Shown here: piece after piece, positions 1 to 56,175 of the stretch
Layout: each line of letters begins with the position of its first letter
Numbering within the stretch: the first letter of the stretch is position 1
DNA from: Anaerolineae bacterium
GTDB taxonomy: Bacteria > Chloroflexota > Anaerolineae > Anaerolineales > Villigracilaceae
Direction: 5' to 3'
Length of the DNA: 59,153 nucleotides
Assembly: GCA_018648655.1 (NCBI GenBank)
Contig: JABGQV010000091.1
Location: 1-59,153 of the forward strand
Position numbers and translations under genes: made by a program
The notes under the pieces: model-generated
What the model was told of the DNA's origin: nothing
What the model saw: only the letters and a program-made list of their open reading frames with translations
Database searches by the model: none

Positions 1-383
1 GGAATCGAACCCGCGTCCGAAAAATTCGAGCCTCGAATATCTACGAGCGTAGCTAATTGATGAACGTCACCAGAGAATTCTCAATTAGCAGGAAATTTCT
101 CCAGTCAGCCACTAGGACCCGAAAGCCCTCTTTCACATAGTTAATGGCATCGTATGTGGCACTTCGCTTTTGCGTCGCCCGATCCTATGACCCAACGAAG
201 AAGGGTAAAGGGGGGCGCGGTCTACTATGAGACCGGACCGCTAGACTATCGCTTATGCAGCGAGAGGCATAGCAGCGTAAGGTGTGCGTTTGGCACTTAA
301 ATGTTGCGCTGATTTTACGAGTAACGGCGCACCCTCGGCTCGCAATTCGGAATCAGCCTTCCCCGTCGAAGCCTGTCATCCCC
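1..383 (-). ncRNA. ssrA: tmRNA (ssrA), 3' end truncated by the window edge
   Basis: The reverse complement of 361-383 reads GGGGATGACAGGCTTCGACGGGG, the canonical tmRNA 5' end. The reverse complement of 1-20 reads TCGGACGCGGGTTCGATTCC, the T-arm of the tRNA-like domain; the acceptor 3' strand and CCA lie outside the window. Tag reading frame on the minus strand, 294..253: GCC AAA CGC ACA CCT TAC GCT GCT ATG CCT CTC GCT GCA TAA = AKRTPYAAMPLAA*. Confidence 0.85.
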
Positions 384-8625: not shown

Positions 8626-8715
8626 ATTTCTTTTCAAGTAATAGAAACTCTCGAAGGACTAAAGTTCACGTTTGAAGCGTTTTTTTTGATATACTCTGTT
8701 TATAAGGAGAATAAT

Positions 8716-9801
8716 ATGAATAAAAAAGTATTTCCTCTCATTCTTTTAATGGCATTAAGTCTTTCAGCATGTGGCACAGCAACACCAACGGCCACTGCTG
8801 TGGCAACAGAAGAGCCTCCTACAGCTACTCTTTTAGCTGCTACTGAAGCGCCTACAGAAGTTCCCCTCGTAACAGAGACACCTCTGGTTACGGCTATCCC
8901 AGTAGATCCTCCAACTTCTGCGCCAACAGCAACACTCCCTCCGCCAGTGAATGCAGCAGACTGCACTAACTTAGGGAAGTTTATCTCCGATGTTACTATT
9001 CCTGATAATAGCGAAGTAAATATTGGTGAAGCTTTTACTAAAATATGGCGTATTCAGAATACAGGCACCTGTATTTGGTGGGAAGGATATTCAGTGGCAC
9101 ATTATTCAGAAGGCTCTTTTGACGCAGCTGAGACAACCCCTTTGCCACGCACTAATCCTGGAGAAACAGCAGATATTTCTGTTGATTTAGTGTCCCCTGA
9201 ACTGGCTGGTTTTTACCGTGGGAACTTTGTAGTTCAAAACCCACTTGGGCTATATATGGAGATTGAAGGTGATTCTCGTTTATGGCTTATTTTTAATGCC
9301 GTCGATAATGGTGAAATCATTGTTGAAGCCACATCAACTCTTGCTGCAACAGCTCCTGTTGTTGCAGAGACAGTGGAAGTGGCTGCTTGTGAAGCCGTTC
9401 TTGAAGATACACGACTTGATGGCGTCTTTGCCTCTGTTAATACCTATAGGGTAGAGAATGGTTTGACACTTTATCCTATTAATCAGGCTTTATCAGATGC
9501 TGCTCAGGCTCATGCTGTGGATATTGCCTGCAATAATCTTTTTGTGCATACAGGTTCTGATGGTTCTACCGCTCAAGAGCGTGCAACTGCGGCAGGATAT
9601 ACATTTTCTGTTACAGAAAACGTGTATGGAAGTAATCCTCCGCTTACGCCTGAAGGGGTGAAAGAGTGGTGGAGACTAGATACGGTAGACCCCACCCATG
9701 GTGAGAATCTTCTTAGCACCGAATATACTGAAATGGGGATTGGTTATGCCTTCTTTGATGGTTTCGGCTATTATGTAGCCGTCTTTGGAAAAGGGGAGTA
9801 G
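8716..9801 (+). CDS. secreted lipoprotein: Thr/Pro linker + Nbr1-FW-like domain + CAP/SCP domain
   Basis: Start moved to ATG 8716 (AAGGAG SD; the track start 8686 lacks one). Lipobox LSLSACG. Nbr1-FW-like FTKIWRIQNTGTCIWWEGY...GFYRGNF. CAP-like C-terminus HTGSDGSTAQERATAAGYT...MGIGYA. Confidence 0.75.
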   Translation: MNKKVFPLILLMALSLSACGTATPTATAVATEEPPTATLLAATEAPTEVPLVTETPLVTAIPVDPPTSAPTATLPPPVNAADCTNLGKFISDVTIPDNSEVNIGEAFTKIWRIQNTGTCIWWEGYSVAHYSEGSFDAAETTPLPRTNPGETADISVDLVSPELAGFYRGNFVVQNPLGLYMEIEGDSRLWLIFNAVDNGEIIVEATSTLAATAPVVAETVEVAACEAVLEDTRLDGVFASVNTYRVENGLTLYPINQALSDAAQAHAVDIACNNLFVHTGSDGSTAQERATAAGYTFSVTENVYGSNPPLTPEGVKEWWRLDTVDPTHGENLLSTEYTEMGIGYAFFDGFGYYVAVFGKGE

Positions 9802-17110: not shown

Positions 17111-18802
17111 ATGGAAAGTGGTCCAAAATATCGGGTTTTAGAAGTTGGTAGTATCGTTGTCTTTATAATTATTACGATACTATTGGTGGTTCTCAACCCA
17201 TCACAGGGGGTGGATACGGTTGAGCAATTCTCAAGCGTAGAATTGGATGCTTACGCTTATGCCATGCCGCATCAGGGTTGGGCACCGATGAGTGTCTATT
17301 TCAGTGCCTTTGGCAGCCAATCGAAGTTGGGGAATGTTGTCAGCTATGAATGGGATTTGGACGGGAACGGCCTCTACGATACCGATGCCAGCGCGGATGG
17401 GGGATATGCCAGTTATACGTATACAAAGCCGGGGGAATATCTTGTTACGGTACGAGTGACGGATGATGCTGGACGTTCAACTACGGCAAACACTTTAGTC
17501 GTTGTAAAGCACCCTTCCGCCAGCAGTGTAGATTATTGGACGATCTTCGATGATTCGCAAGTGCGGAAAGTGGAGTTGCAGATTACACAGGCGAATTGGG
17601 ATGCGATGTGGGAGCAACCTGAATCCAAGACCCGTGTTGAAGCGGATATTTTCTTTTTTGGCGATCTTGTTGAATCTGTAGCGGTCAGTATGAAAGGGAA
17701 CGGTTCTTTGGGCGGCTCGGGCGAGAAGAAGTCGTGGAAGATCGATACGGATTATTTTGTTGCCGAGCAAGAATATAAGAATTTGAAGCAATTTCTTTTC
17801 CATAATAATTTTATGGATGCTTCGATGCTGCGAGAGAAGATGGGCTATGAAATGAGCGCTTTTGCCGGTGTCCCGGCAGGGTATACGGCTTATGTCGAAT
17901 TCTGGATAGATATTGTGGATGATGAGAATCCATCTGAGTATTGGGGCGTGTATACGATGGTCGAGCGACCGGATTCTAAATATGTGCGCAATCGTTTTGG
18001 AGACGATAATGGGATTGGGAACCTGTACAAGGCAGATGCCTGGTTCGAGCAGGGGGCTGCCGACCTAGCCTATTACGGGCAAGATATTGAAGATTACCCC
18101 AAACCTCGGGGAGAGGTTGCATACAGTCTTCGGACTAATAAAGATGAAGCCGACTACAACGACATCATCCAATTATGTTATGTGATCGATGGTGTCCAAT
18201 ATGAAACTGAAGAAGTTTTTACACAGGCTCTTGAAGAAGTTCTGAATGTGGATGGTTATCTGCGTTATACCGCCGTTTTGATGACACTCCAAAATTTGGA
18301 TACCTACCAATATACGGGCAATAATTACTTTATCTATAATGATTTAACGATGGGCAAATTTGAATTCGTGGCGTGGGATTTGAATAGTGCGTGGATGGGC
18401 AATCCTGAGTTCCCCTTATATGGCGAAAAATGTTGTCAGGGACCCGTGCAGTGGGCGCCGCTCTATACAAAGGTTTTTCAGGTTGCCCGTTATCGACAGG
18501 ATTATGCCGCGTATGTGGATTTGTTGACCCGTTACTGGTTCAGTGATAATTATTTTCCCACAAGGGCAGCGTATTGGCAGGAGATGGTCTCGCCATATTT
18601 AGACGGTGACAAAGCTTATATCGGCGATTCGGCACTGTACTCGCTAGAGCAATTTACGAGCGAGCGGGATCAATTGATTTTGCTAACGAGCCAACGCAGC
18701 CAGTATTTGCAATCACTGCTTTCTTCGGGGCAATGGAGAACGATTATCCCTGAGCCAAATGTGGATTTGAATACTGAGGGCAATGTCAACGAAATGCACT
18801 GA
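17111..18802 (+). CDS. membrane-anchored PKD-domain + CotH kinase family protein
   Basis: 563 aa. N-terminal TM IVVFIIITILLVVL. PKD repeat YEWDLDGNGLYD...YTYTKPGEYLVTVRVTDDAGR. CotH-like KKSWKIDTDY, MLREKMGYE, WGVYTMVE, GNLYKAD and NNYFIYND..FVAWDLNSAW. Confidence 0.85.
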   Translation: MESGPKYRVLEVGSIVVFIIITILLVVLNPSQGVDTVEQFSSVELDAYAYAMPHQGWAPMSVYFSAFGSQSKLGNVVSYEWDLDGNGLYDTDASADGGYASYTYTKPGEYLVTVRVTDDAGRSTTANTLVVVKHPSASSVDYWTIFDDSQVRKVELQITQANWDAMWEQPESKTRVEADIFFFGDLVESVAVSMKGNGSLGGSGEKKSWKIDTDYFVAEQEYKNLKQFLFHNNFMDASMLREKMGYEMSAFAGVPAGYTAYVEFWIDIVDDENPSEYWGVYTMVERPDSKYVRNRFGDDNGIGNLYKADAWFEQGAADLAYYGQDIEDYPKPRGEVAYSLRTNKDEADYNDIIQLCYVIDGVQYETEEVFTQALEEVLNVDGYLRYTAVLMTLQNLDTYQYTGNNYFIYNDLTMGKFEFVAWDLNSAWMGNPEFPLYGEKCCQGPVQWAPLYTKVFQVARYRQDYAAYVDLLTRYWFSDNYFPTRAAYWQEMVSPYLDGDKAYIGDSALYSLEQFTSERDQLILLTSQRSQYLQSLLSSGQWRTIIPEPNVDLNTEGNVNEMH

Positions 18803-18818
18803 GCTTGAAGGAGAACTC

Positions 18819-20225
18819 ATGAAGAAACTCAAAAGAATTTTTCTCGTTTTTATCATTATTATCCTCATCCCAACTATCGCTCTTGCGCAGGGAAATGGTT
18901 TCAGCGACAGCTTTGATGATTCCACACTCTCGGAGTGGGAAGCGCCCGGTGCGACGGTTGAAAATGGTGTTTTGAAACTCAGCGATGGAGGATTTGCCCT
19001 CCACTTTGGTGATTGGTCAGAAATTACGCTGATGCTCAAATTCAAGTTTTCTGGCGAAGGCGAAGGGGTGGTCAATTATTATTTCCGTGACGAAGGGCGT
19101 TATGGTTTTGCTTTTGGAGAAAACACTCTATACCTTGAAAAAGAAACGTCAGAGGGCATCGAGACGCTTAGCGATGTGAAAGCAGCCACGCTTCAACCAG
19201 ACACATGGATCAATCTTAAAATTGTTGTCAGTGACGGACAGCATCAAATTTATCTCAATGATGAATTACAACTCACAGCTACAGATGGAAATCCGCTTAA
19301 AACGGGCGCAGTCATGTTCAACTCTCGTGGGCTGACGCTCGAGTTTGATGACCTGCAAGTGCAGGGCACGCCCGGCGAAGGTGCCATGCCCGAAGGCGAA
19401 TATCCGTCCGAAGGGCAAGATCCGCTAACAGAAGGCGAAGCCTCGCCAATGGGCGAAGTATCGCCTGCGGTCGAGGGTGCGCCAGAAGTTGGCGAAACGA
19501 ATGCTTCAACCTCTAACACAGCCCAACCCGCAACCACATCCCAAACAAAGGATAGCCTTATGCAAGAATTCTTCTCCAGCCAAGCCACCCCCACCGACCT
19601 GACCACTTTCCTCATCAACATGGTGCTGGCAGCCATTGCTGCCTTTATTCTCAGCCTTGTCTACATCCATTGGGGCTCGTCGCTTTCGAACCGCCGCAAA
19701 TTTGCTGCTAATTTTATGCTGATGACCATCACAACAACCTTTATCATTTTGATTGTGCGTTCGTCAGTTGCCTTGAGTCTTGGCTTGGTCGGTGCGCTCT
19801 CGATTGTCCGTTTTCGTACCGCCGTCAAAGAGCCAGAAGAGTTAGCCTATCTCTTCTTTGCCATCGGGATCGGGATTGGCTTGGGGGATAACCAGCGGCT
19901 GATAACGATGTTGGCGTTAGTAATCGGGATCATCATCATTGGATTAAATAGACTGCTCCACCGCGCCGAAGCGGACGCAAATTTACACTTGTCAATTGCA
20001 AGTCAACATCCTGCCAAAGTGGAGCTACTGCAGATCGAAGCCGTTTTACGGAATCATTGCTCAAAGATGAAGCTGCTTCGTTTCGATGAAACAGCAAAGA
20101 TACTCGAAGCAGGCTTCCTCGTTGAATTTCGGGAGATGAGTCAACTAAACGTGACCAAGCAAGAATTAAGGGCGCTTTCGGATCAGATCGAGATCACTTT
20201 TATGGATAATAAGGGCGTTTGGTAA
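18819..20225 (+). CDS. DUF4956 membrane protein with N-terminal concanavalin/DUF1080-like ectodomain
   Basis: Start placed at ATG 18819 (AAGGAG SD; track start 18783 overlaps the CotH 3' end). Signal/TM IFLVFIIIILIPTIALA, a beta-sandwich-like ectodomain, an acidic E/G/P linker and a multi-TM core with GALSIVRFRTAVKEPEELAYLFFAIGIGIGLG. Confidence 0.8.
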   Translation: MKKLKRIFLVFIIIILIPTIALAQGNGFSDSFDDSTLSEWEAPGATVENGVLKLSDGGFALHFGDWSEITLMLKFKFSGEGEGVVNYYFRDEGRYGFAFGENTLYLEKETSEGIETLSDVKAATLQPDTWINLKIVVSDGQHQIYLNDELQLTATDGNPLKTGAVMFNSRGLTLEFDDLQVQGTPGEGAMPEGEYPSEGQDPLTEGEASPMGEVSPAVEGAPEVGETNASTSNTAQPATTSQTKDSLMQEFFSSQATPTDLTTFLINMVLAAIAAFILSLVYIHWGSSLSNRRKFAANFMLMTITTTFIILIVRSSVALSLGLVGALSIVRFRTAVKEPEELAYLFFAIGIGIGLGDNQRLITMLALVIGIIIIGLNRLLHRAEADANLHLSIASQHPAKVELLQIEAVLRNHCSKMKLLRFDETAKILEAGFLVEFREMSQLNVTKQELRALSDQIEITFMDNKGVW

Positions 20226-20228
20226 ATG

Positions 20229-20314
20229 TCGTCACTGCGAGCCGATGATGCACTTCGTCGGCGTGACAGTCTCCCGGATAGCGTGGAGATTGCGTCGCTT
20301 CGCTCGCAATGACG
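20229..20314. repeat. palindromic MITE/REP-like intergenic repeat, copy 1
   Basis: Terminal inverted repeat CGTCACTGCGAGC...GCTCGCAATGACG. Shares blocks GTCAYTGCGAGCCGATG, TCGGCGTGRCARTCTCCC, GGAGATTGC and CTCGCAATGAC with 37712-37801. Confidence 0.7.
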
Positions 20315-20334
20315 TAGCTCTATAGGTATAAAAA

Positions 20335-21024
20335 ATGAAAAAACCCAAAATCCGAGAATACCGCTACGAGCGAAAATTCCGCGTTGAAGACCTTGATGTT
20401 GCTCAAGTACGGATGCTCGTCAAACGCCATCCGGGCATTTTTTACTCGCCCTTTCCGCCCCGCTATATCAATAATCTCTACCTCGACACGCCCGATATGG
20501 AGAATTATCACGCCAACGTGAGTGGTGTGGGCGAGCGACAAAAAGCGCGCATCCGCTGGTATGGCGATCTTTTTGGCGAGATTCCTAAGCCCGTTTTGGA
20601 ATTTAAGGTAAAAGATGGTTTGGTTGGTGCAAAATATAGTTACCCTTTTCCCGCTTTTTCTTTTGACAGTGAATTCTCGCAAAATGGCTTTCAAAAACTT
20701 ATCGCCAAATCCGATCTGCCCGATGTCGTGCGTTGGCAGCTGCGCGGTATGAGCGTGGTTTTATGTAATCGCTATTATCGCTGGTACTACCTCACAAAGG
20801 ATCAAAAATATCGTGTCACGGTTGATAAAGAAATGCGTTATTATCACATCCGGCAAACTGCTAATCATTTTCGCTATCAATTTCTTGACCCTAAAGCGAT
20901 TGTGGTTGAGCTGAAATATGCCCGTGATTTAGACCCCTATGCTGATAAAGTTGCGGGATTTTTCCCCTTCATGCTCACACGGAACTCAAAATATATCACT
21001 GGTATAGAGCAGGTCTATTTATAG
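20335..21024 (+). CDS. VTC-domain (CYTH-like, polyphosphate polymerase domain) protein
   Basis: 229 aa, no TM. EYRYERKFRV, INNLYLDTPD, RQKARIRWYG and VLEFKVKDG resemble bacterial VTC/triphosphate-tunnel proteins. Confidence 0.7.
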   Translation: MKKPKIREYRYERKFRVEDLDVAQVRMLVKRHPGIFYSPFPPRYINNLYLDTPDMENYHANVSGVGERQKARIRWYGDLFGEIPKPVLEFKVKDGLVGAKYSYPFPAFSFDSEFSQNGFQKLIAKSDLPDVVRWQLRGMSVVLCNRYYRWYYLTKDQKYRVTVDKEMRYYHIRQTANHFRYQFLDPKAIVVELKYARDLDPYADKVAGFFPFMLTRNSKYITGIEQVYL

Positions 21025-21037
21025 GTAAAACATTTTC

Positions 21038-22162
21038 ATGTCCCGCCGCACAGAATTTATCCCCTATAAGCCCAAAACGATTCTCAATAAACACAAACGC
21101 GCTGATCATTGGTTCTGGACGCGTTATACAGCCTATCCTTATAAAGGGTGTCAGCATGGTTGCCAATTCTGTTACTGCCGCGAGCAGAAATTTTCTCCTT
21201 TTGATGATCCAAATGATTTTGCATATACCATCCACGTTAAGGAAAATGCGCCACAGCTTTTGCGCAAAGCCATTGCCCGCGCGAAAACGGATTTGATCTT
21301 CATGGGTGATTACCAACCTGCTGAAAAGAAATTTAGACTTTCCCGTCAAATGCTCGCAGTTTGCCTTGAGAGGAACTTCCCTGTTTTTATTCTAGAACGT
21401 TCGCCCCTCATCTTGCGCGATCTCGACCTGTTGACTGAAATCAACACCAAAGCTGTTGCCGCAACGGCTTTCAGCATCATCTCTACGCCCGACTCGGTGC
21501 ATTACGAACGCATCCGCCAGATGGAGCATCTTGCCCCGCCGCCAGAAAAACGCTTCAAGGCGATGGAGCAACTCGCGCTCGCTGGCATCCAGACCGGAGC
21601 GTGTATGATGCCCCTCTTGCCGGAACTTTGCGACACGGATGAAAATCTCGAATCTATCATTAAATGGACAGCCGACCACGGAGGGAGCTTCGTCCTTGCA
21701 TCAGGCTTGACCCTCTCCGATCAACAGCGAGCCTACTTCTTCAATGTCCTTGCCGAACGTTTTCCCGATATCTTGCCTGCCTATGAAAAATATTATCCCG
21801 CTGGGAAAAGTTATGGCGCAGCCGATGGGAGCTGGCGTAGGACAGCACTTAAAATTCGCGAGCTCTGCGAGAAGCACGGTATCAAAGATAGAATGCCACG
21901 CCCGATTATTCCGGGCGATAAACGGGCTAAAAACAAAGGTATCGTTGAAATTTTTGCGAATAAAGTCTATAGAATGGAACTTGAGCGTGCCCCAAAAAAT
22001 AAGATTTGGGTGTATAGAAAAGCGGCTTGGGCAATTGAAGATATGGAACAGGATATTTCACTTTTTTATCGCATGATGGGTCAAAAAGGTTTAGAAAAAA
22101 TACCAGAAATAGGCGAAAATTTGGCAAAAGAAGTTGAAGGATTATTAACTGAGGTAGTGTAG
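21038..22162 (+). CDS. SplB-like (DNA photolyase-type) radical SAM protein with C-terminal PolX-like helix-hairpin-helix extension
   Basis: 374 aa. CX3CX2C cluster motif YKGCQHGCQFCYC. The body resembles COG1533-type radical SAM proteins. The last 60 aa or so (IWVYRKAAWAIEDMEQDISLFYRMMGQKGLEKIPEIGENLAKEVEGLL) resemble the Pol beta/PolX 8-kDa HhH pattern. Confidence 0.8.
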   Translation: MSRRTEFIPYKPKTILNKHKRADHWFWTRYTAYPYKGCQHGCQFCYCREQKFSPFDDPNDFAYTIHVKENAPQLLRKAIARAKTDLIFMGDYQPAEKKFRLSRQMLAVCLERNFPVFILERSPLILRDLDLLTEINTKAVAATAFSIISTPDSVHYERIRQMEHLAPPPEKRFKAMEQLALAGIQTGACMMPLLPELCDTDENLESIIKWTADHGGSFVLASGLTLSDQQRAYFFNVLAERFPDILPAYEKYYPAGKSYGAADGSWRRTALKIRELCEKHGIKDRMPRPIIPGDKRAKNKGIVEIFANKVYRMELERAPKNKIWVYRKAAWAIEDMEQDISLFYRMMGQKGLEKIPEIGENLAKEVEGLLTEVV

Positions 22163-33401: not shown

Positions 33402-33618
33402 GGAGTATTTTTGTTTGGAGATATCAAGCGGCCCGTACGTGAAGTCAACTTGAGTGGCATCAAAACAGCATTTGTGCGTCAGTTAGTACCTCCCGTTAAA
33501 TGGTTAAAAAGTAACTCGCTTAAAGCCATAAGTTCAGGTAAAATGCAAATATAATAGCATTGGATGGGAATAAAAAAAGTCTTTCTCGTCTTATATTTAT
33601 GCAAAAAAGGAAAAGATC

Positions 33619-34794
33619 ATGACATTAAATTCAGATACCTCAGCAAGCGACACCATAGATGCCTATCGTAAAAAACAGCAACGCGGCCCCGTTGTTGTCT
33701 GGGCTATTGCGGCATTGCTTGTTCTAGTTGGCATTATTATTCTCATTATTTGGTTCACAGGTGATAATAAACCGCAAATAGCACTTTTTGCTACAAAAAC
33801 GCCAACCCCAACAATCACCTCAACAGCCACGCTTACTTCAACGCCAACACTAATACCAACAGCAACATCTACGCCAACTCAAACATTAACACCCGTTCCA
33901 CCAACTCCCTCTGCGCCATTTCTCTATGAAGTACAAGAGGCTGAATATCTTTATTCTATTGTTGAGAAATTTAACTTAGGGGAGGATGGTATTGCCTTAA
34001 TATATTATCTGAATCCAGATGTAGCAGCGACTGGCGGGAATGTTTATCCAGGGCAAAGCATACAAATTCCAAACCCCGATATGCCACTCCCTACGGCTAC
34101 TGCTATTCCCCTAGATTTACCGAGAGGAACAGAACTGAACTACGCTGTTGAACTTGGTGATTCTATTGCCTCGATTGCAGTGAAATTCCGTAGCACCCTT
34201 GAAGAAATTTTAGAGCTAAATGGTATAGAAAATGCAAATAATATCCAGGTAGGGCAAATCCTTATTATCCCTATAAATCTTGTCACCGCAGAACCTACTC
34301 GCCTTCCGCCCACAGCCCCAGCAAATCTGACATCAACGCCTACTGCTCCTGTAACTGGAGGAACGCCTGTTGGTAGAGCGTGTAATTATGAACTAAATGA
34401 GGACTTTATAGCTCAAATTTTTGAGCTAGTTAATACTGAGCGTATAACACAGGGTTTATCTCCAGTGACAGAAAATGAAAAACTGAGTGCCGCTGCCCTT
34501 GTTCACGCTTCCGATATGGCTTGTAACTCTTTCGTCAAAGAAACTGGCTCCGATGGTTCAACTGCCGAAGAGCGCGTTCAAGCACAAGGATATACAGCCT
34601 CAGCGGTACTTCAAGAAATCCTCGCTTTGCCTCCAGAGTATGGTGGTGATGGGCAAGCAGCCTTCGATGAGTGGATGGGTGGGATAACATTACTCAACCC
34701 CATTGTCACCGAAATTGGTATTGCCTATGCCTACTCATCAGAAAGCGCTTTTGGCGGTTACTTTACCCTTATTCTTGCTGCTCCCGCACCCTAA
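33619..34794 (+). CDS. membrane-anchored Thr/Pro linker + 2x LysM + CAP/SCP domain protein
   Basis: 391 aa. TM VVVWAIAALLVLVGIIILIIWF. LysM-like YEVQEAEYLYSIVEKF and YAVELGDSIASIAVKF...LNGIENANNIQVGQILIIP. CAP-like ETGSDGSTAEERVQAQGYT...IGIAYA. Confidence 0.75.
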   Translation: MTLNSDTSASDTIDAYRKKQQRGPVVVWAIAALLVLVGIIILIIWFTGDNKPQIALFATKTPTPTITSTATLTSTPTLIPTATSTPTQTLTPVPPTPSAPFLYEVQEAEYLYSIVEKFNLGEDGIALIYYLNPDVAATGGNVYPGQSIQIPNPDMPLPTATAIPLDLPRGTELNYAVELGDSIASIAVKFRSTLEEILELNGIENANNIQVGQILIIPINLVTAEPTRLPPTAPANLTSTPTAPVTGGTPVGRACNYELNEDFIAQIFELVNTERITQGLSPVTENEKLSAAALVHASDMACNSFVKETGSDGSTAEERVQAQGYTASAVLQEILALPPEYGGDGQAAFDEWMGGITLLNPIVTEIGIAYAYSSESAFGGYFTLILAAPAP

Positions 34795-37801: not shown

Positions 37802-37823
37802 TTTTTATATATAGGAGCTATTT

Positions 37824-38999
37824 ATGCTCAACAAAAAAACACTTAAAGACCTTGATGTCAAAAATAAGCGTGTTCTTGTGCGTGTGGATTTCAATGTTCC
37901 GATTAATGATGGGGAAGTCGGGGATGATACCCGCATCCAAGCCGCGTTGCCGACTATTATGTATTTACTGAAACAGGATGCAAAAGTCATTCTCTGTTCT
38001 CATCTGGGACGACCAAAAGGCGAAGCTCAAAGTGAGTTTTCACTTGCTCCCGTTGCCGTGCATCTAGCATCGGTAATCGGGATGCCCGTCAAATTCGCTA
38101 CAGATTGTCTTGGTGAGCCAGCCCAAGCAGCTACATCATCTTTGAAAGTAGGTGAAATTCTCTTGCTTGAAAATACCCGTTTTCATGCAGGTGAAAAGAA
38201 AAATGACCCTGCAATGGCAAAAGAACTGGCTTCTTTAGCAGATTTATTTGTTAATGACGCTTTTGGCACAGCCCACCGTGCGCACGCATCTAATGCAGGT
38301 GTATCGAAGGAACTCCCCTCTGCAGCAGGATTTTTACTAGAGAAAGAGTTGAAATATCTCGGTGATACCATCGCAAATGCCGAAAAGCCCTTCATTGCTA
38401 TTTTGGGCGGGGCAAAGGTGAGCGATAAAATTGGTGTTATTACCAACTTATTAGAAAAAACCGATAAAATCCTCATTGGCGGTGGTATGGCGAATACTTT
38501 CTTTAAAGCGCAAGGTTATGACATGGCTGATTCTCTTGTAGAAGCGGATGCCATAGAAACAGCACGTCAGCTCATTGAAAAAGCTAGGGATGCCTTAGTG
38601 CTACCCGTCGATGTCGTCATCGCTGATGACTTCGCAGACCAAGCGCAAAGCAAGGTCGTTCCGGTTGGTGATGTCCCCGCTGGTTGGCGCATTTTGGATA
38701 TTGGTCCTGCCACAGTTGTCGCCTATGCTTCCATTATTAAAAAATCTAAAACAGTGGTTTGGAATGGACCTATGGGCGTATTTGAATTCCCGAATTTTGC
38801 TAAAGGTACTTTTGGCGTTGCCGAAGCCGTTGCAGAGGCAGATGTGGTTAGTGTGATTGGTGGTGGAGATTCAGTTGCTGCTATCAAAGAAGCCAATTTA
38901 GATGAAAAAGTAAGCCATATTTCTACAGGTGGTGGGGCATCGTTAGAGATGTTAGAAGGCAAGATTTTACCTGGCGTAGACGCGCTAGAAGACAAATAA
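37824..38999 (+). CDS. pgk: phosphoglycerate kinase
   Basis: 391 aa. [24 protein letters not shown] and STGGGA. Confidence 0.97.
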
Positions 39000-39190
39000 T
39001 TTGTAGAGGTGGGGTTCAAGCCTACCCCTATTTTTTACAAAACCATAACATTTTTGAAACACAAAACTTTTGAAGTGGGCTATAATTTAGGCGGGTGGTC
39101 TGAAGGGCTTATAGTTTGATAATTGTAGAGAATAAATTGCCTATCAGCTCAACTGATCAATCGACCAATTTAACTAAAAAGGAAAACATC

Positions 39191-40981
39191 ATGGCCTTTG
39201 ATACTGGTGAAAATGTAGGCTCTTATAGAGTTATGGAAAAACTGGGGCGCGGTGGTATGGCAACGGTATATAAAGCCTATCATGCTAATTTAGATCGTTA
39301 TGTTGCGCTTAAGGTTTTGCACCCTGCCTTTTTAGAAGATCCTAATTTTTTGGCACGTTTTCAGCGTGAGGCACGTTTGGTTGCTAAGTTGGAGCATACC
39401 AATATTGTGCCAGTTTATGATTTTGCTGAACACGATGAACAACCTTATTTGGTGATGAAATATATAGAGGGGGACACACTCAAGGCGCATTTAAATAAAG
39501 GCCGCTTAGAGACAGATGAAATCTGGAAAGTTGTTGAAGCGGTTGGTGCAGGCTTAGGGTATGCGCATCAGCAAGGTATTTTACATCGCGATATTAAGCC
39601 ATCTAATGTAATTATGGCAAAAGATGGTAAAGCCTATCTCGCGGATTTCGGTTTAGCGCGGATTGCCCAATCGGGAGAATCTACACTGTCTTCTGACATG
39701 ATTATGGGCACACCCCAATATATTTCACCAGAACAAGCGAAAGGCGAGAAAAATCTTGATAATGGCACCGATATTTATTCTTTTGCGGTGATGCTATATG
39801 AAATGGTGGTCGGTCAAGTGCCATTTAGCTCTGACACGCCTTTTTCCATTATTCATGATCATATTTATTCGCCACTGCCTTTGCCACATTTGGTTAATCC
39901 TAAAGTGCCAGATGAAGTGGAACGCGTTTTGCTTAAAGCACTCTCCAAAGAGCGTGAAGATCGGTATGAAAGTGTAGAAGCATTAAACGCTGCTTTCAAA
40001 AAAGCTTGGGATGATTCTGATATAGATATGGCAGATGCGACTATGACCTCGCCTATTCAAAATATCCCCATGCCCCCATCGCCAGATATTTTAGAAAGGG
40101 TGAGTGCTTCAACTATTATTCCTGAACAAAAAGAGGAAGCAGATATTGCTAAAAAGACAAAAATTTCTGAGAAAACAAAGAAAAAACGTAAAATTTGGCC
40201 TTTTGCCGCTGCTGGGCTTTTAGTATTATTGGCTATTTTCTTTATCATTAATGCTGCAGGACAAGATAGAGTTTTTGAGAACTTATCGGAAGCTGGAGAA
40301 GAAGGCGCAGGCCAATTAGAAGAAAATGCCCCCATCCCAGTGCCTATAGGCCAAGAAGCTCCTGAACGCGTAGAAGAAGCAAGACAGTGGGTAAATGATT
40401 CTCCTGATGATCCTTATGCTCATATAGAATTAGCGCTTATGCTTCTTGAAGAGCAACCAGAAAACAGAGAAGGAATTCAGAACGAAGTAAGAGAAATAGA
40501 AAGAACTGCTGGAGATAATATAGAAATTTATGAAGTCGCAGGTTATGAGTTTGCATCGCGAGGATATTGGCGTGGCGCTACCCTAATGTTTTTACGTGCA
40601 GTAGAAATCAGTGGACAGGAAGATATATATATGCTCGATAATCTTCGTGAAAGTGCATATAAATTTGCTGGTTCACCCCTCTCGAGAAATGAGAGTGGTC
40701 TACTTGATAGAATAACTATAATAGACCCTACACTTACACTTATTGCTCAAGCTCGTCATGAGTTTTATTATGGTGATAGGAAAGCAGCACAAGAAATCTT
40801 GGAAGAAGCCAAAAGACAAAATGCTAAATATCCTGAAATTCCTTTGCTAAGAGCAGAAATATTATTACAGCAAGGTCATTTTGACGAAGCCCGTGGAATA
40901 CTTGAAGCCATTTGGGATTTCCCTGAAGTTCCAGATTGGATAGCCGTAGAAGTTGATAAAGCACTCAGTGAATTACCCTAG
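39191..40981 (+). CDS. Hanks-type Ser/Thr protein kinase, single TM, C-terminal TPR-like ectodomain
   Basis: Start placed at ATG 39191 (track start is TTG 39116). GRGGMATVYKA, ALKVL, HRDIKPSN, DFG and GTPQYISPE. TM IWPFAAAGLLVLLAIFFIINA. The C-terminal helical repeats are TPR-like. Confidence 0.9.
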   Translation: MAFDTGENVGSYRVMEKLGRGGMATVYKAYHANLDRYVALKVLHPAFLEDPNFLARFQREARLVAKLEHTNIVPVYDFAEHDEQPYLVMKYIEGDTLKAHLNKGRLETDEIWKVVEAVGAGLGYAHQQGILHRDIKPSNVIMAKDGKAYLADFGLARIAQSGESTLSSDMIMGTPQYISPEQAKGEKNLDNGTDIYSFAVMLYEMVVGQVPFSSDTPFSIIHDHIYSPLPLPHLVNPKVPDEVERVLLKALSKEREDRYESVEALNAAFKKAWDDSDIDMADATMTSPIQNIPMPPSPDILERVSASTIIPEQKEEADIAKKTKISEKTKKKRKIWPFAAAGLLVLLAIFFIINAAGQDRVFENLSEAGEEGAGQLEENAPIPVPIGQEAPERVEEARQWVNDSPDDPYAHIELALMLLEEQPENREGIQNEVREIERTAGDNIEIYEVAGYEFASRGYWRGATLMFLRAVEISGQEDIYMLDNLRESAYKFAGSPLSRNESGLLDRITIIDPTLTLIAQARHEFYYGDRKAAQEILEEAKRQNAKYPEIPLLRAEILLQQGHFDEARGILEAIWDFPEVPDWIAVEVDKALSELP

Positions 40982-40990
40982 GAGAAAAAT

Positions 40991-41746
40991 ATGCGAACCC
41001 CCATTGTTGCTGGAAATTGGAAAATGAATAAAACAATCTCAGAAGCTCGTGAATTAGTTTCTGAATTTGTACCACTCGTAAAAGATATGAACGCTGTTGA
41101 AATTGTTCTTTGCCCGCCCTCGCCTGCGTTGCTCCCTGTAGCCGCTTTATTAGAAGGAACGGATATTGAACTTGGTGCTCAAAATATGCACTGGGAATCT
41201 GGCGGCGCATACACGGGTGAACTTGCTCCCGTTATGGTGAAGGAATTTGCGAACTTCGTCATTCTTGGTCATTCCGAACGCCGAGCCTATTTCGGAGAGA
41301 CTGATGAGACTGTAAATAAAAAAGTTAAAGCCGCCCAAAATGAAGGCTTAATGCCCATTATTTGTGTAGGTGAAAGCCTTGAAGAAAACCAAGCTGGAAA
41401 AACAGAAGATATTGTATCTGGTCAAATTAAGGCCGGGTTAAAGGACGTAGGCGCAAACTTGGTTATTGCCTATGAACCAATTTGGGCAATCGGCACTGGA
41501 CTTGCCGCAACGAGTGAGATGGCAAACGATACCATTAAGATAATTCGTTCAAACTTGAAAGAACTTTTCGGACAAGAAGATGCCGAAAAAATCCGTATTT
41601 TATATGGTGGCTCTGTGAAGGGGAGTAACGCTGCTGAATACTTCTCTCAATCTGATATTGATGGGGCACTGGTTGGCGGCGCATCCCTCAAAGCAGATGC
41701 TTTTGCAGAGATTGTTGTTGCAGCGCAAAATGAAGCAGTAAAATAA
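40991..41746 (+). CDS. tpiA: triosephosphate isomerase
   Basis: 251 aa. VAGNWKMN, GHSERR, AYEPIWAIGTG and GGASL. Its SD (AGGAGA) overlaps the kinase stop codon. Confidence 0.97.
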   Translation: MRTPIVAGNWKMNKTISEARELVSEFVPLVKDMNAVEIVLCPPSPALLPVAALLEGTDIELGAQNMHWESGGAYTGELAPVMVKEFANFVILGHSERRAYFGETDETVNKKVKAAQNEGLMPIICVGESLEENQAGKTEDIVSGQIKAGLKDVGANLVIAYEPIWAIGTGLAATSEMANDTIKIIRSNLKELFGQEDAEKIRILYGGSVKGSNAAEYFSQSDIDGALVGGASLKADAFAEIVVAAQNEAVK

Positions 41747-52715: not shown

Positions 52716-53747
52716 ATGCTCGGAAAAATAGCCTTTCTCGGTTCTGGCGAAACCTCCCTCGCGGGTGGACGAATCTTTGAGAGTATTATCAAAGAAATAG
52801 ACCACCCTCCCCAAATTGCCATTATGGAAACCGCAGCGGGATTTGAACTCAACTCCGCGCAGGTTGCTCAAAAAGTGGGGGACTATCTCCAAACCCGCCT
52901 ACAAAACTATAAACCCGAAATTCATATCATCCCCGCCCGCAAACGCGGCACAAAATTTAGTCCTGATAACGCTGAAATTCTCTCTCCGCTCCTCACCACC
53001 GATCTGATCTTCATGGGCCCCGGTAGCCCCACTTACGCCGTGCGTCAACTCGAAAATAGCCTTGCCTGGGATCTAATCCGTGCGCGTCATCGACGCGGTG
53101 CCGCGCTTATTTTCTCTAGCGCGGCTACCATCGCGATTGGCGCACAGGCTCTCCCCGTTTACGAAATTTTCAAAGTTGGCGAAGATATTCATAGCAAGCC
53201 CGCACTCAATCTTTTTGCCGATTTTCACCTACCCCTTTCCTTCATCCCACATTGGAATAACGCCGAAGGCGGCGCAGATCTCGATACCAGCCGTTGCTTT
53301 GTCGGGCGTCAGCGTTTCGACCGTTGGCGTAAGCAACTTCCGCTCAACCAAATAATTCTTGGCTTAGACGAGCATACGGGCATTATCCTTGATTTTGAAA
53401 CGCAAAAATGCCGAATTAGCGGTGTCAGCTCTATAACAATCTGCGATGGTAAAGAGACCGAGATTTACCCCGCAGGGGCAGAATTTGGAATAGATAAACT
53501 TGGCACACTAAATATCCCTAATTTGGATGAAGGCATCTCTGCAACCGCTCTAGATTTCCTCCGTAACACCCCTGACCTGGAACCTGATACCGTTATTCCA
53601 GCAGAAGTCCTCACCCTAGTCGAATACCGCCAAAAAGCCCGCGCCATCAAAGAATTTGCAGAATCTGACCGTCTGCGTGACCAAATCGCCGCCCTCGGCT
53701 GGGAGGTGCAAGACACTTCCAATGGGCAAGAGTTGGTGAAGAAATAG
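52716..53747 (+). CDS. hypothetical protein: S51-peptidase/cyanophycinase-like N-domain + CysRS-type C-terminal helical tail
   Basis: 343 aa. IAFLGSGE..., LIFMGPGSPTYAVRQL...GAALIFSSAATIAIG (S51-like layout). The C-terminus VLTLVEYRQKARAIKEFAESDRLRDQIAALGWEVQDTSNGQELV resembles the extreme C-terminus of cysteinyl-tRNA synthetase. Confidence 0.6.
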   Translation: MLGKIAFLGSGETSLAGGRIFESIIKEIDHPPQIAIMETAAGFELNSAQVAQKVGDYLQTRLQNYKPEIHIIPARKRGTKFSPDNAEILSPLLTTDLIFMGPGSPTYAVRQLENSLAWDLIRARHRRGAALIFSSAATIAIGAQALPVYEIFKVGEDIHSKPALNLFADFHLPLSFIPHWNNAEGGADLDTSRCFVGRQRFDRWRKQLPLNQIILGLDEHTGIILDFETQKCRISGVSSITICDGKETEIYPAGAEFGIDKLGTLNIPNLDEGISATALDFLRNTPDLEPDTVIPAEVLTLVEYRQKARAIKEFAESDRLRDQIAALGWEVQDTSNGQELVKK

Positions 53748-53810
53748 AATCAAGAACTGCATTGCACCTGCTTTTGGTACGTTGCAATTCGATTTGGAAA
53801 ATGTAAACTT

Positions 53811-53850
53811 GATGTGCAACGCATCTTTCAGATGCAACGCACATCTTTCT
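53811..53850 (+). repeat. tandem ~20-nt direct repeat abutting the ATG of the kinase/aminotransferase fusion gene
   Basis: GATGTGCAACGCATCTTTCA / GATGCAACGCACATCTTTCT. A further GTTGCAAT half-site lies at 53782-53789. Confidence 0.5.
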
Positions 53851-56175
53851 ATGGAGCTCCCCATGCCCCTCCCTCCCCTCAACGCAAAACATGCTATCGA
53901 ACTTGCCTCCGAATATTATGGCTTAATCGCCGAAGCGAAACCCCTCCCCGGCGATATTGACCGCAATTTTCTGCTTTCTACACAAAGCGACAAATTAACC
54001 CTGAAAATCCACGAGCTAGAAACGCAGCGCGAAGAAATTGAATTTCAGCACGCTGCCCTCCAGCACCTGAGCGGATTTGGTGGTGTGCCACATATTATCC
54101 CAAACAAAGATGGGGAGATGATTTTTAGAATCTCCCACGATGGAGATAATTACCTTGTACGGATGGTTAGCTATTTAGAGGGAAATCTCTTAGAAAATAT
54201 TATTCCCAAACCTTCGAATCTTTTGCATGGGCTTGGCTCGTTCATTGCACAGCTTGATCTTGCTCTCGTTGATTTCACGCACTCTGCTATGCAGCGAGAA
54301 GAGCCACTTTGGGATTTATCGCTGGCTCATCTCGTTATTGAGCCACGCTTGGGTATCATCGCTACCTCCGAAAGGCAAGATTTAGCATCTCAAGTTGTGG
54401 AACGCTTTAAAAGACGTGTCTTGCCTGTTCTGCCCGATTTATATCAGCAAGTCATTCATTGCGACGCTAATACGCAAAATCTCCTTGTGGAAGATGGCAT
54501 GATTAGCGCTATCTTTGATTTTGGTGATATGAGATATGCCCCACGCATCTTTGAAGTAGCAATTTGTGCGGCTTATGCGCTGCTCGGCGAAGAGAATCCG
54601 CTTGAGGCTGTGGCACATCTTGTGGCGGGATACCACAGCTTAATCCCGCTGACGGTGACGGAGATTTCTTTGCTATACGATTTGATCTGCGCGCGGCTGG
54701 CGGTTAGTGCATCCATCTCATCTGAACGGGAAGGGGATGACCGTTATGATGCTTATCACCAGACTCATGCAAAACCCGCTTGGGAGGCGTTAGTGAAGTT
54801 ATTATCGGTAAATGCCGAAGATGCGACGTCGATTATCGGGTCGATGTGTCCGCCAAGAAATGTTAGTTTAATGGAAGCAAGCCCAAAACGGGTGCGGCTC
54901 ACGCCGCAGGCGATCATCCAAAAAAGAGAAAAGAATCTCAGTCTTGCCTTGAGTTTATCTTATGAAAATCCGCTCTATATTGTGCGTGGGCAGGGGCAAT
55001 TTTTATACGATACAGAGGGGGAAAGTTATCTGGATTGTGTGAATAATGTTTGCCACGTTGGGCATTCGCACCCGCGTGTTGTAGCGGTGTTGGCAGGGCA
55101 GGCGGCGGCATTGAATACGAATACGCGCTATTTGCACGAGAATATCGTGCGGCTGGCGGAGCGGGTCACGACGACCATGCCTGAGCCCTTATCCGTGTGT
55201 TTTTTCGTCAATTCGGGCAGCGAGGCGAACGACCTTGCGCTGCGACTGGCGCGGGCCTATACCAGCGAGCGGGATATGCTCGTTTTGGATGGGGCGTATC
55301 ACGGGAATTTGTCGAGTTTGGTGGAGATTTCGCCTTATAAATTTGATGGCAAGGGCGGTACAGGCGCGCCATCTTGGGTGCATAAATTGAGCGTGCCCTG
55401 TAATTATCGTGGCGAGTTTCGGGATGCTGAAAAGCCTGTGGCGCGTTATATAGAGCAGGCGCAAGAGAAAATTGATGCGGCGAGAGGTATTGCGGCCTTT
55501 ATTAGCGAGGCGATAATTGGCACGGGCGGGCAAATCGTTTTTCCTGAAGGCTATTTGGCGCAAATTTATGAGCGGACGCGCGCGGTGGGCGGCATTTGCA
55601 TCGCCGATGAAGTTCAAAACGGGTTTGGGCGTTTTGGCACACATTTCTGGGGTTTTCAGAGTCACGGCGTTGTGCCAGATATCGTCACGATGGGCAAGCC
55701 AATGGGCAATGGACATCCGCTGGCGGCGGTGGTCACGCGCCCAGAAATTGCGGCCGCATTCAATAACGGGATGGAATATTTCAACACCTTTGGTGGCAAT
55801 CCCGTTTCTTGTGCTGTAGGTCTTGCTGTGCTGGATGTGATCGAAGATGAAAACTTGCAGGAAAATGCGCTCCACGTAGGCGCAAAACTTAAGGCGGGAT
55901 TATTGGAACTCAAAGCTCGCTACCCCTTAATCGGCGATGTGCGCGGCGAGGGGCTTTTTCTCGGCATCGAACTTGTGCGGGATCGTTCTACGCTCGAACC
56001 TGCTTCCGCTGAAACGCATCGGATTGTCGAGGAAATGCGAAACCGGCAAATCTTGCTCAGCATAGATGGTCCCTTGTATAATGTCATCAAGATCAAGCCG
56101 CCGATTGTGTTTAATGAGGGAGATGCGGCGAGGTTGGTAAGAGAGTTGGATTCAGTGATGGGCAAGTTGTTTTAA
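53851..56175 (+). CDS. fusion: APH/hydroxylysine-kinase-like phosphotransferase + class-III aminotransferase-fold (phospho-lyase clade-like) domain
   Basis: Start at ATG 53851 (or 53863); track start is TTG 53782. Kinase part: [19 protein letters not shown] and FDFGDM. Aminotransferase part: [39 protein letters not shown] and [10 protein letters not shown]. Confidence 0.85.

Follow-up and report, generated by a model that had tools for sequence, protein, structure and literature searches.

In prokaryotes, the synthesis of polyphosphate is attributed to PPK1 and PPK2. A 2023 review surveyed the VTC domain, known from the yeast and protist VTC complex, in eukaryotes alone and attributed bacterial polyphosphate synthesis to PPK1 (PMC10657179). 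In streptococci, clostridia and bifidobacteria, genes for CotH, a polyphosphate polymerase, DUF4956 and DUF4832 have been described as a contiguous accessory set of the pel operon (Whitfield et al., PLoS Pathog 2020; PMC7112168 / bioRxiv 10.1101/768473), and two VTC-type genes are found together with a CotH gene in NELoc-2 of Clostridium perfringens (PMC11677781). In Streptococcus intermedius, deletion of the DUF4956 or CotH homologue alters Pel levels and aggregation; the authors of that study viewed SIR_1592 as a combination of MgtC and ACT, expected polyphosphate to stay cytoplasmic, and did not find the synteny of the trio outside pel loci (mBio 2025; PMC12345266). Here, a trio of the same families, encoding a CotH kinase-like protein (gene 1), a DUF4956 membrane protein (gene 2) and a stand-alone VTC-type protein (gene 3), is described in a 59,153-nucleotide stretch of DNA from an Anaerolineae bacterium (Chloroflexota; Anaerolineales; Villigracilaceae), namely positions 1 to 59,153 of the forward strand of contig JABGQV010000091.1 (assembly GCA_018648655.1), hereafter called the window.

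The window trio and the published sets (S. intermedius SIR_1594/1593/1592 and C. perfringens NELoc-2) have the same adjoining families in common, and the pel accessory set likewise combines a secreted CotH protein with a VTC-like protein in the cytoplasm and a membrane protein that bears an ACT-like domain. They differ in surroundings, gene order and domain content. No pel or polysaccharide gene is present among the scanned open reading frames (ORFs) of the 59-kb window; the order is CotH-DUF4956-VTC in the window and CotH-VTC-DUF4956 in the pel set; CotH is fused to a PKD domain in the former and to FN3 in the latter; and in the window, but not in the pel set, DUF4956 is preceded by an N-terminal signal peptide and an ectodomain of the DUF1080 family. 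The initial annotation of this DNA, made from the sequence alone, knew of no experimental characterization of such a trio, a statement that is outdated given the accessory pel gene set (2020), the NELoc-2 genes and the S. intermedius deletion mutants (2025). No paper on the biochemistry of the trio proteins was found, and the published work on pel, NELoc-2 and S. intermedius leaves this question unaddressed. What is new here is the pel-independent, cross-phylum and archaeal spread of the trio, and the claim of a synteny confined to pel loci is contradicted by the loci described below.

Linkage of CotH, DUF4956 and VTC across genomes

A scan of one genome per species yielded 471 confirmed VTC loci, the best 80 of which were fetched and analysed; the narrow alignment used for the locus search (A3) biases these 80 towards Chloroflexota. 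Profiles built from the window proteins were searched against all ORFs of the 80 loci, and divergent CotH partners were checked against Pfam, which confirmed their CotH domain. Partners were counted within 6 kb of the VTC gene in those 53 loci whose flanks reached at least 5 kb upstream and at least 3 kb downstream. In this well-flanked subset, DUF4956 accompanies VTC in 52 loci, CotH in 50, and both in 49. The trio was detected in about ten bacterial phyla (Chloroflexota, Actinomycetota, Gemmatimonadota, Planctomycetota, Verrucomicrobiota, Bacteroidota, Acidobacteriota, Chlorobiota, Gammaproteobacteria and Omnitrophota) and in archaea (Methanosarcinales and Methanogenium). In loci where VTC comes directly after DUF4956, the junction between the DUF4956 stop and the VTC start is short, with a median gap of 9 nucleotides (nt) and an overlap in 16 of 67 pairs, which fits co-translation of partners. 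Stand-alone VTC proteins of about 230 amino acids (aa) form approximately 3,000 clusters at 50% identity, and in the loci analysed they are almost always tied to DUF4956 and a surface CotH enzyme.

It could be argued that the three genes have nothing to do with one another and that chance or local synteny has brought them side by side: the plus-strand run from 13.5 to 22 kb of the window is tightly packed, so that adjacency alone is weak evidence. However, the linkage persists across phyla, in rearranged gene orders and between unrelated flanks, the flanking genes differing from locus to locus and being conserved only among close relatives. Chance adjacency is therefore excluded, and this explanation, which retains next to no probability, is refuted. 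The three families co-localize beyond chance, as would be expected of the module that the initial annotation had proposed, and the three genes are held together by selection. Their products very probably work together across the membrane, with a predicted topology that is uniform among the loci: CotH outside, VTC inside, and DUF4956 in the membrane with its ACT-like domain in the cytoplasm.

The family assignments on which these counts are based were those of the initial annotation, and they stand: co-directional plus-strand ORFs are present at all three gene coordinates that it gave (Table 1), the sequence motifs that it quoted are all found in the translations, and every Pfam match, for CotH, PKD, DUF1080, DUF4956 and VTC, exceeds its curated cut-off. 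The closest homologues, with up to 89% identity, come from metagenome-assembled genomes (MAGs) annotated as Anaerolineae (Chloroflexota).

The VTC-type tunnel protein

The gene 3 product matches the Pfam VTC family (PF09359) over model positions 2-235 of 235 (E 1.7e-22; 80.6 bits against a cut-off of 23). It consists of the VTC domain only and has no hydrophobic segment, and it is predicted from its sequence to be a soluble cytoplasmic protein. When a profile of 71 diverse homologues was compared with the PDB, only chains of yeast Vtc2, Vtc3 and Vtc4 were matched. In the profile alignment, K14, R72, R74, K91, Y147, R149 and R160 correspond to Vtc4 K200, R264, R266, K281, Y359, R361 and R373; six of these seven residues are invariant in the 71 homologues, and Y147 is at least 90% conserved. 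As Hothorn and colleagues are said to have found in 2009, these seven Vtc4 residues, together with E426 and S457/K458, are functionally important in the tunnel. Two C-terminal motifs of the bacterial family, E192/K194 (ELK) and S218/K219 (SKY), are invariant as well. The C-terminal third of the protein gave no significant alignment with Vtc4, whether a single sequence or a profile was used, and equivalence of the two motifs to Vtc4 E426 and S457/K458 is suggested by the full-length fold match only.

The structure predicted for gene 3 (predicted local distance difference test, pLDDT, 86.8) has the triphosphate-tunnel fold, an eight-stranded beta-barrel. In a Foldseek search, the top 13 matches were all Vtc4, Vtc3 or Vtc2 (E 1e-10 to 1e-8, TM-score about 0.6), with Vtc4 best. 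The trio therefore has several features in common with the yeast and protist VTC complex (PDB 3g3q, 7ytj, 8i6v), that is, the VTC family, the tunnel fold and the seven aligned residues, as well as the pairing of a cytoplasmic tunnel domain with a membrane protein. It differs from the eukaryotic complex in that gene 3 encodes a separate 229-aa protein with neither an SPX domain nor a DUF202 (Vtc1-type) transmembrane domain, in that the membrane partner is DUF4956, five helices and an ACT-like domain unrelated to Vtc1, and in that the outward-facing CotH partner has no counterpart in yeast.

A further difference from yeast Vtc4 bears on the activity of the protein. In the ExExK motif, the second position is occupied in the bacterial family by an invariant glutamate (E12), a trait of hydrolytic tunnel enzymes, whereas Vtc4 has a threonine (T198). 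Tunnel enzymes other than the Vtc proteins were also retrieved in the fold search, starting at E 7e-8; YgiF, thiamine triphosphatase and class IV adenylate cyclases scored E 1e-7 to 1e-5. ACT domains bind small ligands. It can be envisaged that the VTC-type protein is a hydrolase that cleaves triphosphate, polyphosphate or a nucleotide, as is the case for most bacterial triphosphate-tunnel enzymes, or a cyclase that makes a cyclic nucleotide; its product would act on the ACT-like domain of DUF4956 and regulate a CotH-dependent process at the surface. However, the nearest solved relatives by both sequence and fold are Vtc4, Vtc3 and Vtc2, ahead of the hydrolytic tunnel enzymes; the aligned residues are those of the Vtc4 catalytic tunnel; and the first glutamate of ExExK is replaced by an arginine in the gene 3 family, as it is in Vtc4. 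A hydrolase or cyclase is, on this evidence, clearly unlikely.

The DUF4956 membrane protein

The ORF of gene 2 opens at an ATG at 18783 (480 aa), but the start at 18819 used in the initial annotation is better supported, because a Shine-Dalgarno-like GAAGGAG lies 7 nt upstream of it and because translation from this point gives a canonical signal peptide (MKKLKR-h-region-ALA/QG). The signal peptide is followed by a 239-residue ectodomain made up of a DUF1080 domain and a P/E-rich linker, then by five transmembrane helices and a beta-alpha-beta-beta-alpha-beta domain. Numbered along the 480-aa ORF, residues 40-193 match nearly the full model of 3keto-disac_hyd (PF06439, formerly DUF1080; E 6.5e-10, 39.8 bits against a cut-off of 26.8), and residues 299-435 match DUF4956 (PF16316; E 2.9e-15, 56.9 bits against 30.6). 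The fusion of the two (PF06439 + PF16316, about 460 aa) occurs in over 90 Anaerolineae protein clusters; it is specific to Chloroflexota and has not been described before this work.

The AlphaFold model of the DUF4956 part (pLDDT 80.5) predicts a five-helix membrane protein with its N-terminus outside and its C-terminus inside. With an external N-terminus and five helices, the ACT-like domain would be cytoplasmic. The residues that are invariant in 56 homologues (N291, R292, R331, F332, R333, K337, E340 and E341) are located on loops predicted to be cytoplasmic, and the invariant core of the family, SSxALSLGLVGALSIxRFRxAxKEPEEL, is present in gene 2. When the model was compared with the PDB using Foldseek, matches were obtained for the C-terminal domain alone, the best being the ACT domains of TyrA, Ser33, SerB2 and RelA, with weak E-values (2e-3 to 1e-2).

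The same overall layout, five transmembrane helices and a C-terminal ACT-like domain, is found in MgtC/YhiD/SapB, and many DUF4956 homologues are labelled "YhiD" by JGI. Relatedness at the sequence level is unsupported. The comparison with E. coli YhiD using hhalign gave a probability of 1%, and Pfam MgtC (PF02308) was matched at E 0.15-1.7 in three of the four DUF4956 proteins tested, the window protein giving no match; DUF4956 was thus rejected as a sequence relative of MgtC/YhiD. The shared layout nevertheless opens another explanation of the locus, close to the suggestion of the S. intermedius authors (MgtC and ACT; cytoplasmic polyphosphate), in which the polyphosphate made by the VTC protein would remain cytoplasmic, DUF4956 would sense a small ligand and regulate phosphate or energy homeostasis, and CotH would be a surface enzyme linked to the others in function but independent of them in its chemistry. 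The ACT-like domain, the JGI naming and the weak Pfam matches are all in line with it. Apart from the non-significant profile comparison, two considerations speak against it: it leaves the tight linkage of an extracytoplasmic kinase to two cytoplasm-facing partners unexplained, and it provides no phosphoryl donor for the outward kinase. Such a purely cytoplasmic role seems rather unlikely.

The extracytoplasmic CotH protein

Gene 1 encodes a protein with a single hydrophobic segment (residues 9-27), preceded by K6 and R8 and followed by an acidic stretch of 536 residues. This segment is predicted to be a signal anchor, with PKD and CotH held on the outer side of the membrane. An N-terminal hydrophobic segment is present in all 53 CotH partners of the Chloroflexota type and in 14 of 15 partners of the beta-helix type described below, and in none of 84 VTC proteins, in agreement with the outward orientation predicted in the initial annotation. 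CotH was recognized by Pfam (PF08757) at residues 193-533 (E 1.8e-48; 166.1 bits against a cut-off of 23.8) and PKD at residues 59-130 (E 1.5e-9; 38 bits), PKD_4 being matched as well.

A sequence search of the PDB retrieved Bacillus cereus CotH (5jd9; E 1.5e-11). In the alignment, D397, N405, D423 and K206 of gene 1 correspond to D224, N229, D247 and K55 of the B. cereus protein, and the catalytic Asp, the Asn and the metal-binding Asp are retained in gene 1 and in the Chloroflexota-type CotH sequences shown. D397 and D423 also correspond to D228 and D251 of B. subtilis CotH, and mutation of either residue is stated, in a passage of a later paper, to give an inactive kinase (PMC7821199, citing Nguyen et al. 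2016). The likeness to the spore-coat protein is thus one of Pfam family and catalytic residues. In contrast to Bacillus CotH, the gene 1 product is predicted to be membrane-anchored, extracytoplasmic and PKD-bearing, and its partners are VTC and DUF4956 rather than cotB/cotG. No sporulation gene, cotG and cotB neighbours included, was found among 40 ORFs of the window that were scanned, as had been noted in the initial annotation.

Arrangements of the trio and its surroundings in other genomes

Three gene orders were observed among the loci analysed here, and a fourth occurs in S. intermedius. The order of the window, PKD-CotH, DUF1080-DUF4956 and VTC, is the Chloroflexota form, which is also present in some bins that are labelled Actinomycetota. 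In a second form, DUF4956 is a plain protein of about 230 aa; next comes a larger protein (about 880 aa) combining CotH with a right-handed beta-helix, and VTC is last. This form was found in Omnitrophota, Gemmatimonadota, Planctomycetota, Saprospiraceae, Acidobacteriota, Gammaproteobacteria, Methanosarcinales and Methanogenium marinum. Two loci of Verrucomicrobiales have the order DUF4956-VTC-CotH, and the Streptococcus order is CotH-VTC-DUF4956. In the archaeal trios (L063; L065, Methanogenium marinum DSM 15558; L071), VTC is 40-44% identical to the window VTC protein, which suggests inter-domain transfer. The CotH-like gene and the VTC gene of L065 are separated by an additional ORF of 365 aa that has no match in Pfam.

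The partner of the beta-helix type (L001:8685-11291, L057:897-3560, L063:7225-9975, L065:6198-8885, L068:7342-10017 and similar) has an N-terminal anchor, a CotH-like domain and a beta-helix. It carries a His at the position of the catalytic Asp, and either Asp or Glu at the metal-binding position. All domains fused to CotH are of surface or carbohydrate type (PKD, FN3, LTD + CHB_HEX_C, EF-hand and beta-helix).

A few loci depart from the complete trio. At L085:8001-11382, a DUF4956 gene and a gene for an 897-aa protein of the beta-helix type are located in a Wzx/Wzy/GT4 cluster, beside a type I phosphodiesterase gene. DUF4956-VTC pairs with no recognizable CotH occur in L062 and L066 (Verrucomicrobiota) and in L076 (Lentimicrobiaceae); the upstream ORF of L062 and L066 (682-690 aa, no Pfam match) could be a very divergent partner. 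Two apparent fusions, P0181 (DUF4956 + VTC, 305 aa) and P0308 (CotH + VTC, 1110 aa), have junctions that look out of frame or of low complexity; they are read as frameshift or read-through artefacts and were set aside as evidence of fusion. A concatenated DUF4956 + VTC query returned no further fusion among its best 120 matches.

Glycosyltransferase, methyltransferase, Wzx, Wzy and CapK genes are clustered around the trio in L001, L085 and L087 (Omnitrophota and two other MAGs), and in Firmicutes the trio follows pel operons. Because the core lies within exopolysaccharide clusters in other lineages, a surface polysaccharide would be the most likely target of CotH. These clusters, together with pel, would also accommodate a phospho-glycan or teichoic-acid-like pathway. 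In such a pathway the CotH-like ectodomain would not be a protein kinase; it would act as glycan kinase or phosphotransferase/ligase to decorate or anchor an exopolysaccharide, and VTC and DUF4956 would supply a phosphate-containing block. The carbohydrate-type domains carried by CotH or DUF4956 (DUF1080, beta-helix, CHB_HEX_C), the His in place of the catalytic Asp in the beta-helix type, and the altered Pel levels of the S. intermedius mutants all agree with such a pathway. However, in this window, as in Pelolinea submarina and Methanogenium marinum, the trio is isolated and lacks polysaccharide genes as neighbours, and the window CotH retains the canonical Asp, Asn and Asp of a kinase. Taken as a separate explanation it appears improbable, and it overlaps with the export model set out below rather than excluding it.

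A possible mechanism: polymer made inside and used outside

The full model, which is put forward tentatively as possible rather than probable, is that the trio forms one membrane-spanning machine that makes a phosphate polymer inside the cell and uses it outside. Among the explanations considered, this one offers the most economical connection between the selected linkage, the Vtc4-like tunnel protein, the conserved charged loops and ACT-like domain of DUF4956 and the outward kinase domain. Like Vtc4, the VTC domain would build a phosphate chain from a nucleoside triphosphate. An oligomer of DUF4956 would dock the VTC domain and pass the chain across the membrane, a role comparable to that of the unrelated Vtc1-type transmembrane domains of yeast. 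Outside the cell, the CotH enzyme would use the exported polymer, either by taking phosphoryl groups from it or by attaching it to a surface glycan or protein, while the PKD and lectin-like DUF1080 domains would hold the substrate. Use of the polymer by CotH is proposed because there is no adenosine triphosphate (ATP) outside the cell. We infer every step of this chain of synthesis, export and use. Its most specific form, a prokaryotic VTC-type polymerase with a DUF4956 translocon, whose exported polyphosphate is the donor or the transferred group for membrane-tethered CotH ecto-enzymes acting on surface glycans or proteins, is considered unlikely in itself.

Several observations weigh against an export machine of this kind. 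With regard to the membrane step, no solved relative of the transmembrane part of DUF4956, the Vtc1 channel included, was found in the PDB fold search, which lends no support to pore formation, and the ACT-like C-terminal domain seen in the model is as compatible with a regulatory as with a docking function. As to synthesis, the invariant E12 discussed above is more typical of hydrolytic tunnel enzymes. At the outer face, the substitutions of the beta-helix type suggest that its chemistry may differ from that of a classical kinase, and kinase chemistry may not be general to the trio. The composition of the locus is not fixed either: L085 has no VTC gene within 8 kb of its DUF4956 and CotH-like pair, so the VTC partner can be absent or located elsewhere, CotH was not recognized in L062, L066 and L076, and no genuine DUF4956-VTC or CotH-VTC fusion was found. 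Moreover, deletion of the VTC homologue of S. intermedius, unlike that of its two neighbours, gave no aggregation phenotype (PMC12345266), and no biochemistry of bacterial VTC-domain, DUF4956 or trio-type CotH proteins was found in the literature.

If the export model were true, a function would be assigned to DUF4956, and prokaryotes would have a second route to polyphosphate that is coupled to export and independent of PPK. It would also identify the energy source of the extracytoplasmic CotH kinases found in biofilm (pel) and virulence (NELoc-2) loci, and would explain kinase activity outside the cell without extracellular ATP. Cultured carriers of the trio are available in Pelolinea submarina MO-CFX1, Methanogenium marinum DSM 15558 and Streptococcus intermedius.

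Features of the locus and of the window

The coordinates of the three genes and their domains are listed in Table 1. The spacer between genes 2 and 3 is longer than in most other loci, where it is at most 10 nt or the genes overlap. Close relatives of the window carry different palindromic inserts at this site, and the spacer looks like a variable insertion resembling a repetitive extragenic palindrome or a miniature inverted-repeat transposable element (REP/MITE-like). The hairpin was rejected as a conserved regulatory element, being unconserved in close relatives; it is lineage-specific and not part of the module. A scan with Rfam gave no match in the hairpin.

Table 1. Position and supporting evidence of the trio genes, their domains and the spacer in the window
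Feature	Position	Strand	Evidence and remarks
Gene 1, membrane-anchored PKD + CotH kinase-like protein	17111..18802	+	563 aa; ORF, Pfam, PDB sequence match
Predicted signal-anchor helix, gene 1 residues 9-27	17135..17191	+	Hydropathy, charge count
PKD domain, residues 59-130	17285..17500	+	Pfam PKD, PKD_4; PDB sequence matches to collagenase ColH PKD domains
CotH kinase-like domain, residues 193-533, K206/D397/N405/D423	17687..18709	+	Alignment to B. cereus CotH
Gene 2, signal peptide + DUF1080 ectodomain + P/E-rich linker + DUF4956	18819..20225	+	468 aa from Shine-Dalgarno-supported start
3-keto-disaccharide-hydrolase/DUF1080 (concanavalin-like) ectodomain	18900..19361	+	Pfam PF06439
Acidic P/E/G-rich linker, residues 185-226	19371..19496	+	String located; sequence unconserved in homologues
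Five predicted transmembrane helices of DUF4956	19599..19958	+	AlphaFold model m3a4460889b19, hydropathy
C-terminal beta-alpha-beta-beta-alpha-beta (ACT-like) domain, predicted cytoplasmic	19977..20207	+	Model secondary structure, Foldseek
Spacer between genes 2 and 3 with branched hairpin	20226..20334	+	109 nt; RNA fold -44.7 kcal/mol, z -4.0
Gene 3, stand-alone VTC-type triphosphate-tunnel protein, predicted cytoplasmic	20335..21024	+	229 aa; ORF, Pfam, model

A gene for a PA0069/Rv2578c-type radical SAM protein with a C-terminal helix-hairpin-helix (21038-22162) begins 13 nt past gene 3. Only relatives with a VTC protein of about 59% identity or more share this downstream gene, which is therefore a matter of synteny rather than a part of the module. 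GFO/IDH/MocA oxidoreductase, radical SAM and F420H2-reductase genes were all rejected as module members, since these neighbours recur only in close relatives. The PADLOC models of anti-phage defence matched neither genes 1-3 nor the radical SAM gene. A scan of 15.2-23.5 kb for promoters and terminators was uninformative, its counts being about those of shuffled sequence.

The rest of the window is housekeeping DNA, with genes for a transfer-messenger RNA (tmRNA), amylase, GroEL, GAPDH-PGK-TIM, purine synthesis, RuvB and QueA; no pel, other exopolysaccharide or ppk genes were found among its ORFs scanned between 0.5 and 59 kb. The sole match of the Rfam scan is the tmRNA gene (RF00023, 117 bits), at window positions 1-383 on the minus strand and truncated by the window edge. 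The gap-pgk-tpi glycolytic cluster is interrupted by a gene for a Ser/Thr protein kinase with a C-terminal TPR region (39104-40978), located between pgk (37815-38996) and tpiA (40982-41743). Two proteins with a CAP/SCP (PR-1-like) domain are encoded at 8626-9798 and 33574-34791, one with an Ig-like N_BRCA1_IG domain and the other with LysM. Finally, an 811-aa fusion of APH-type phosphotransferase and class-III aminotransferase domains is encoded at 53740-56172.

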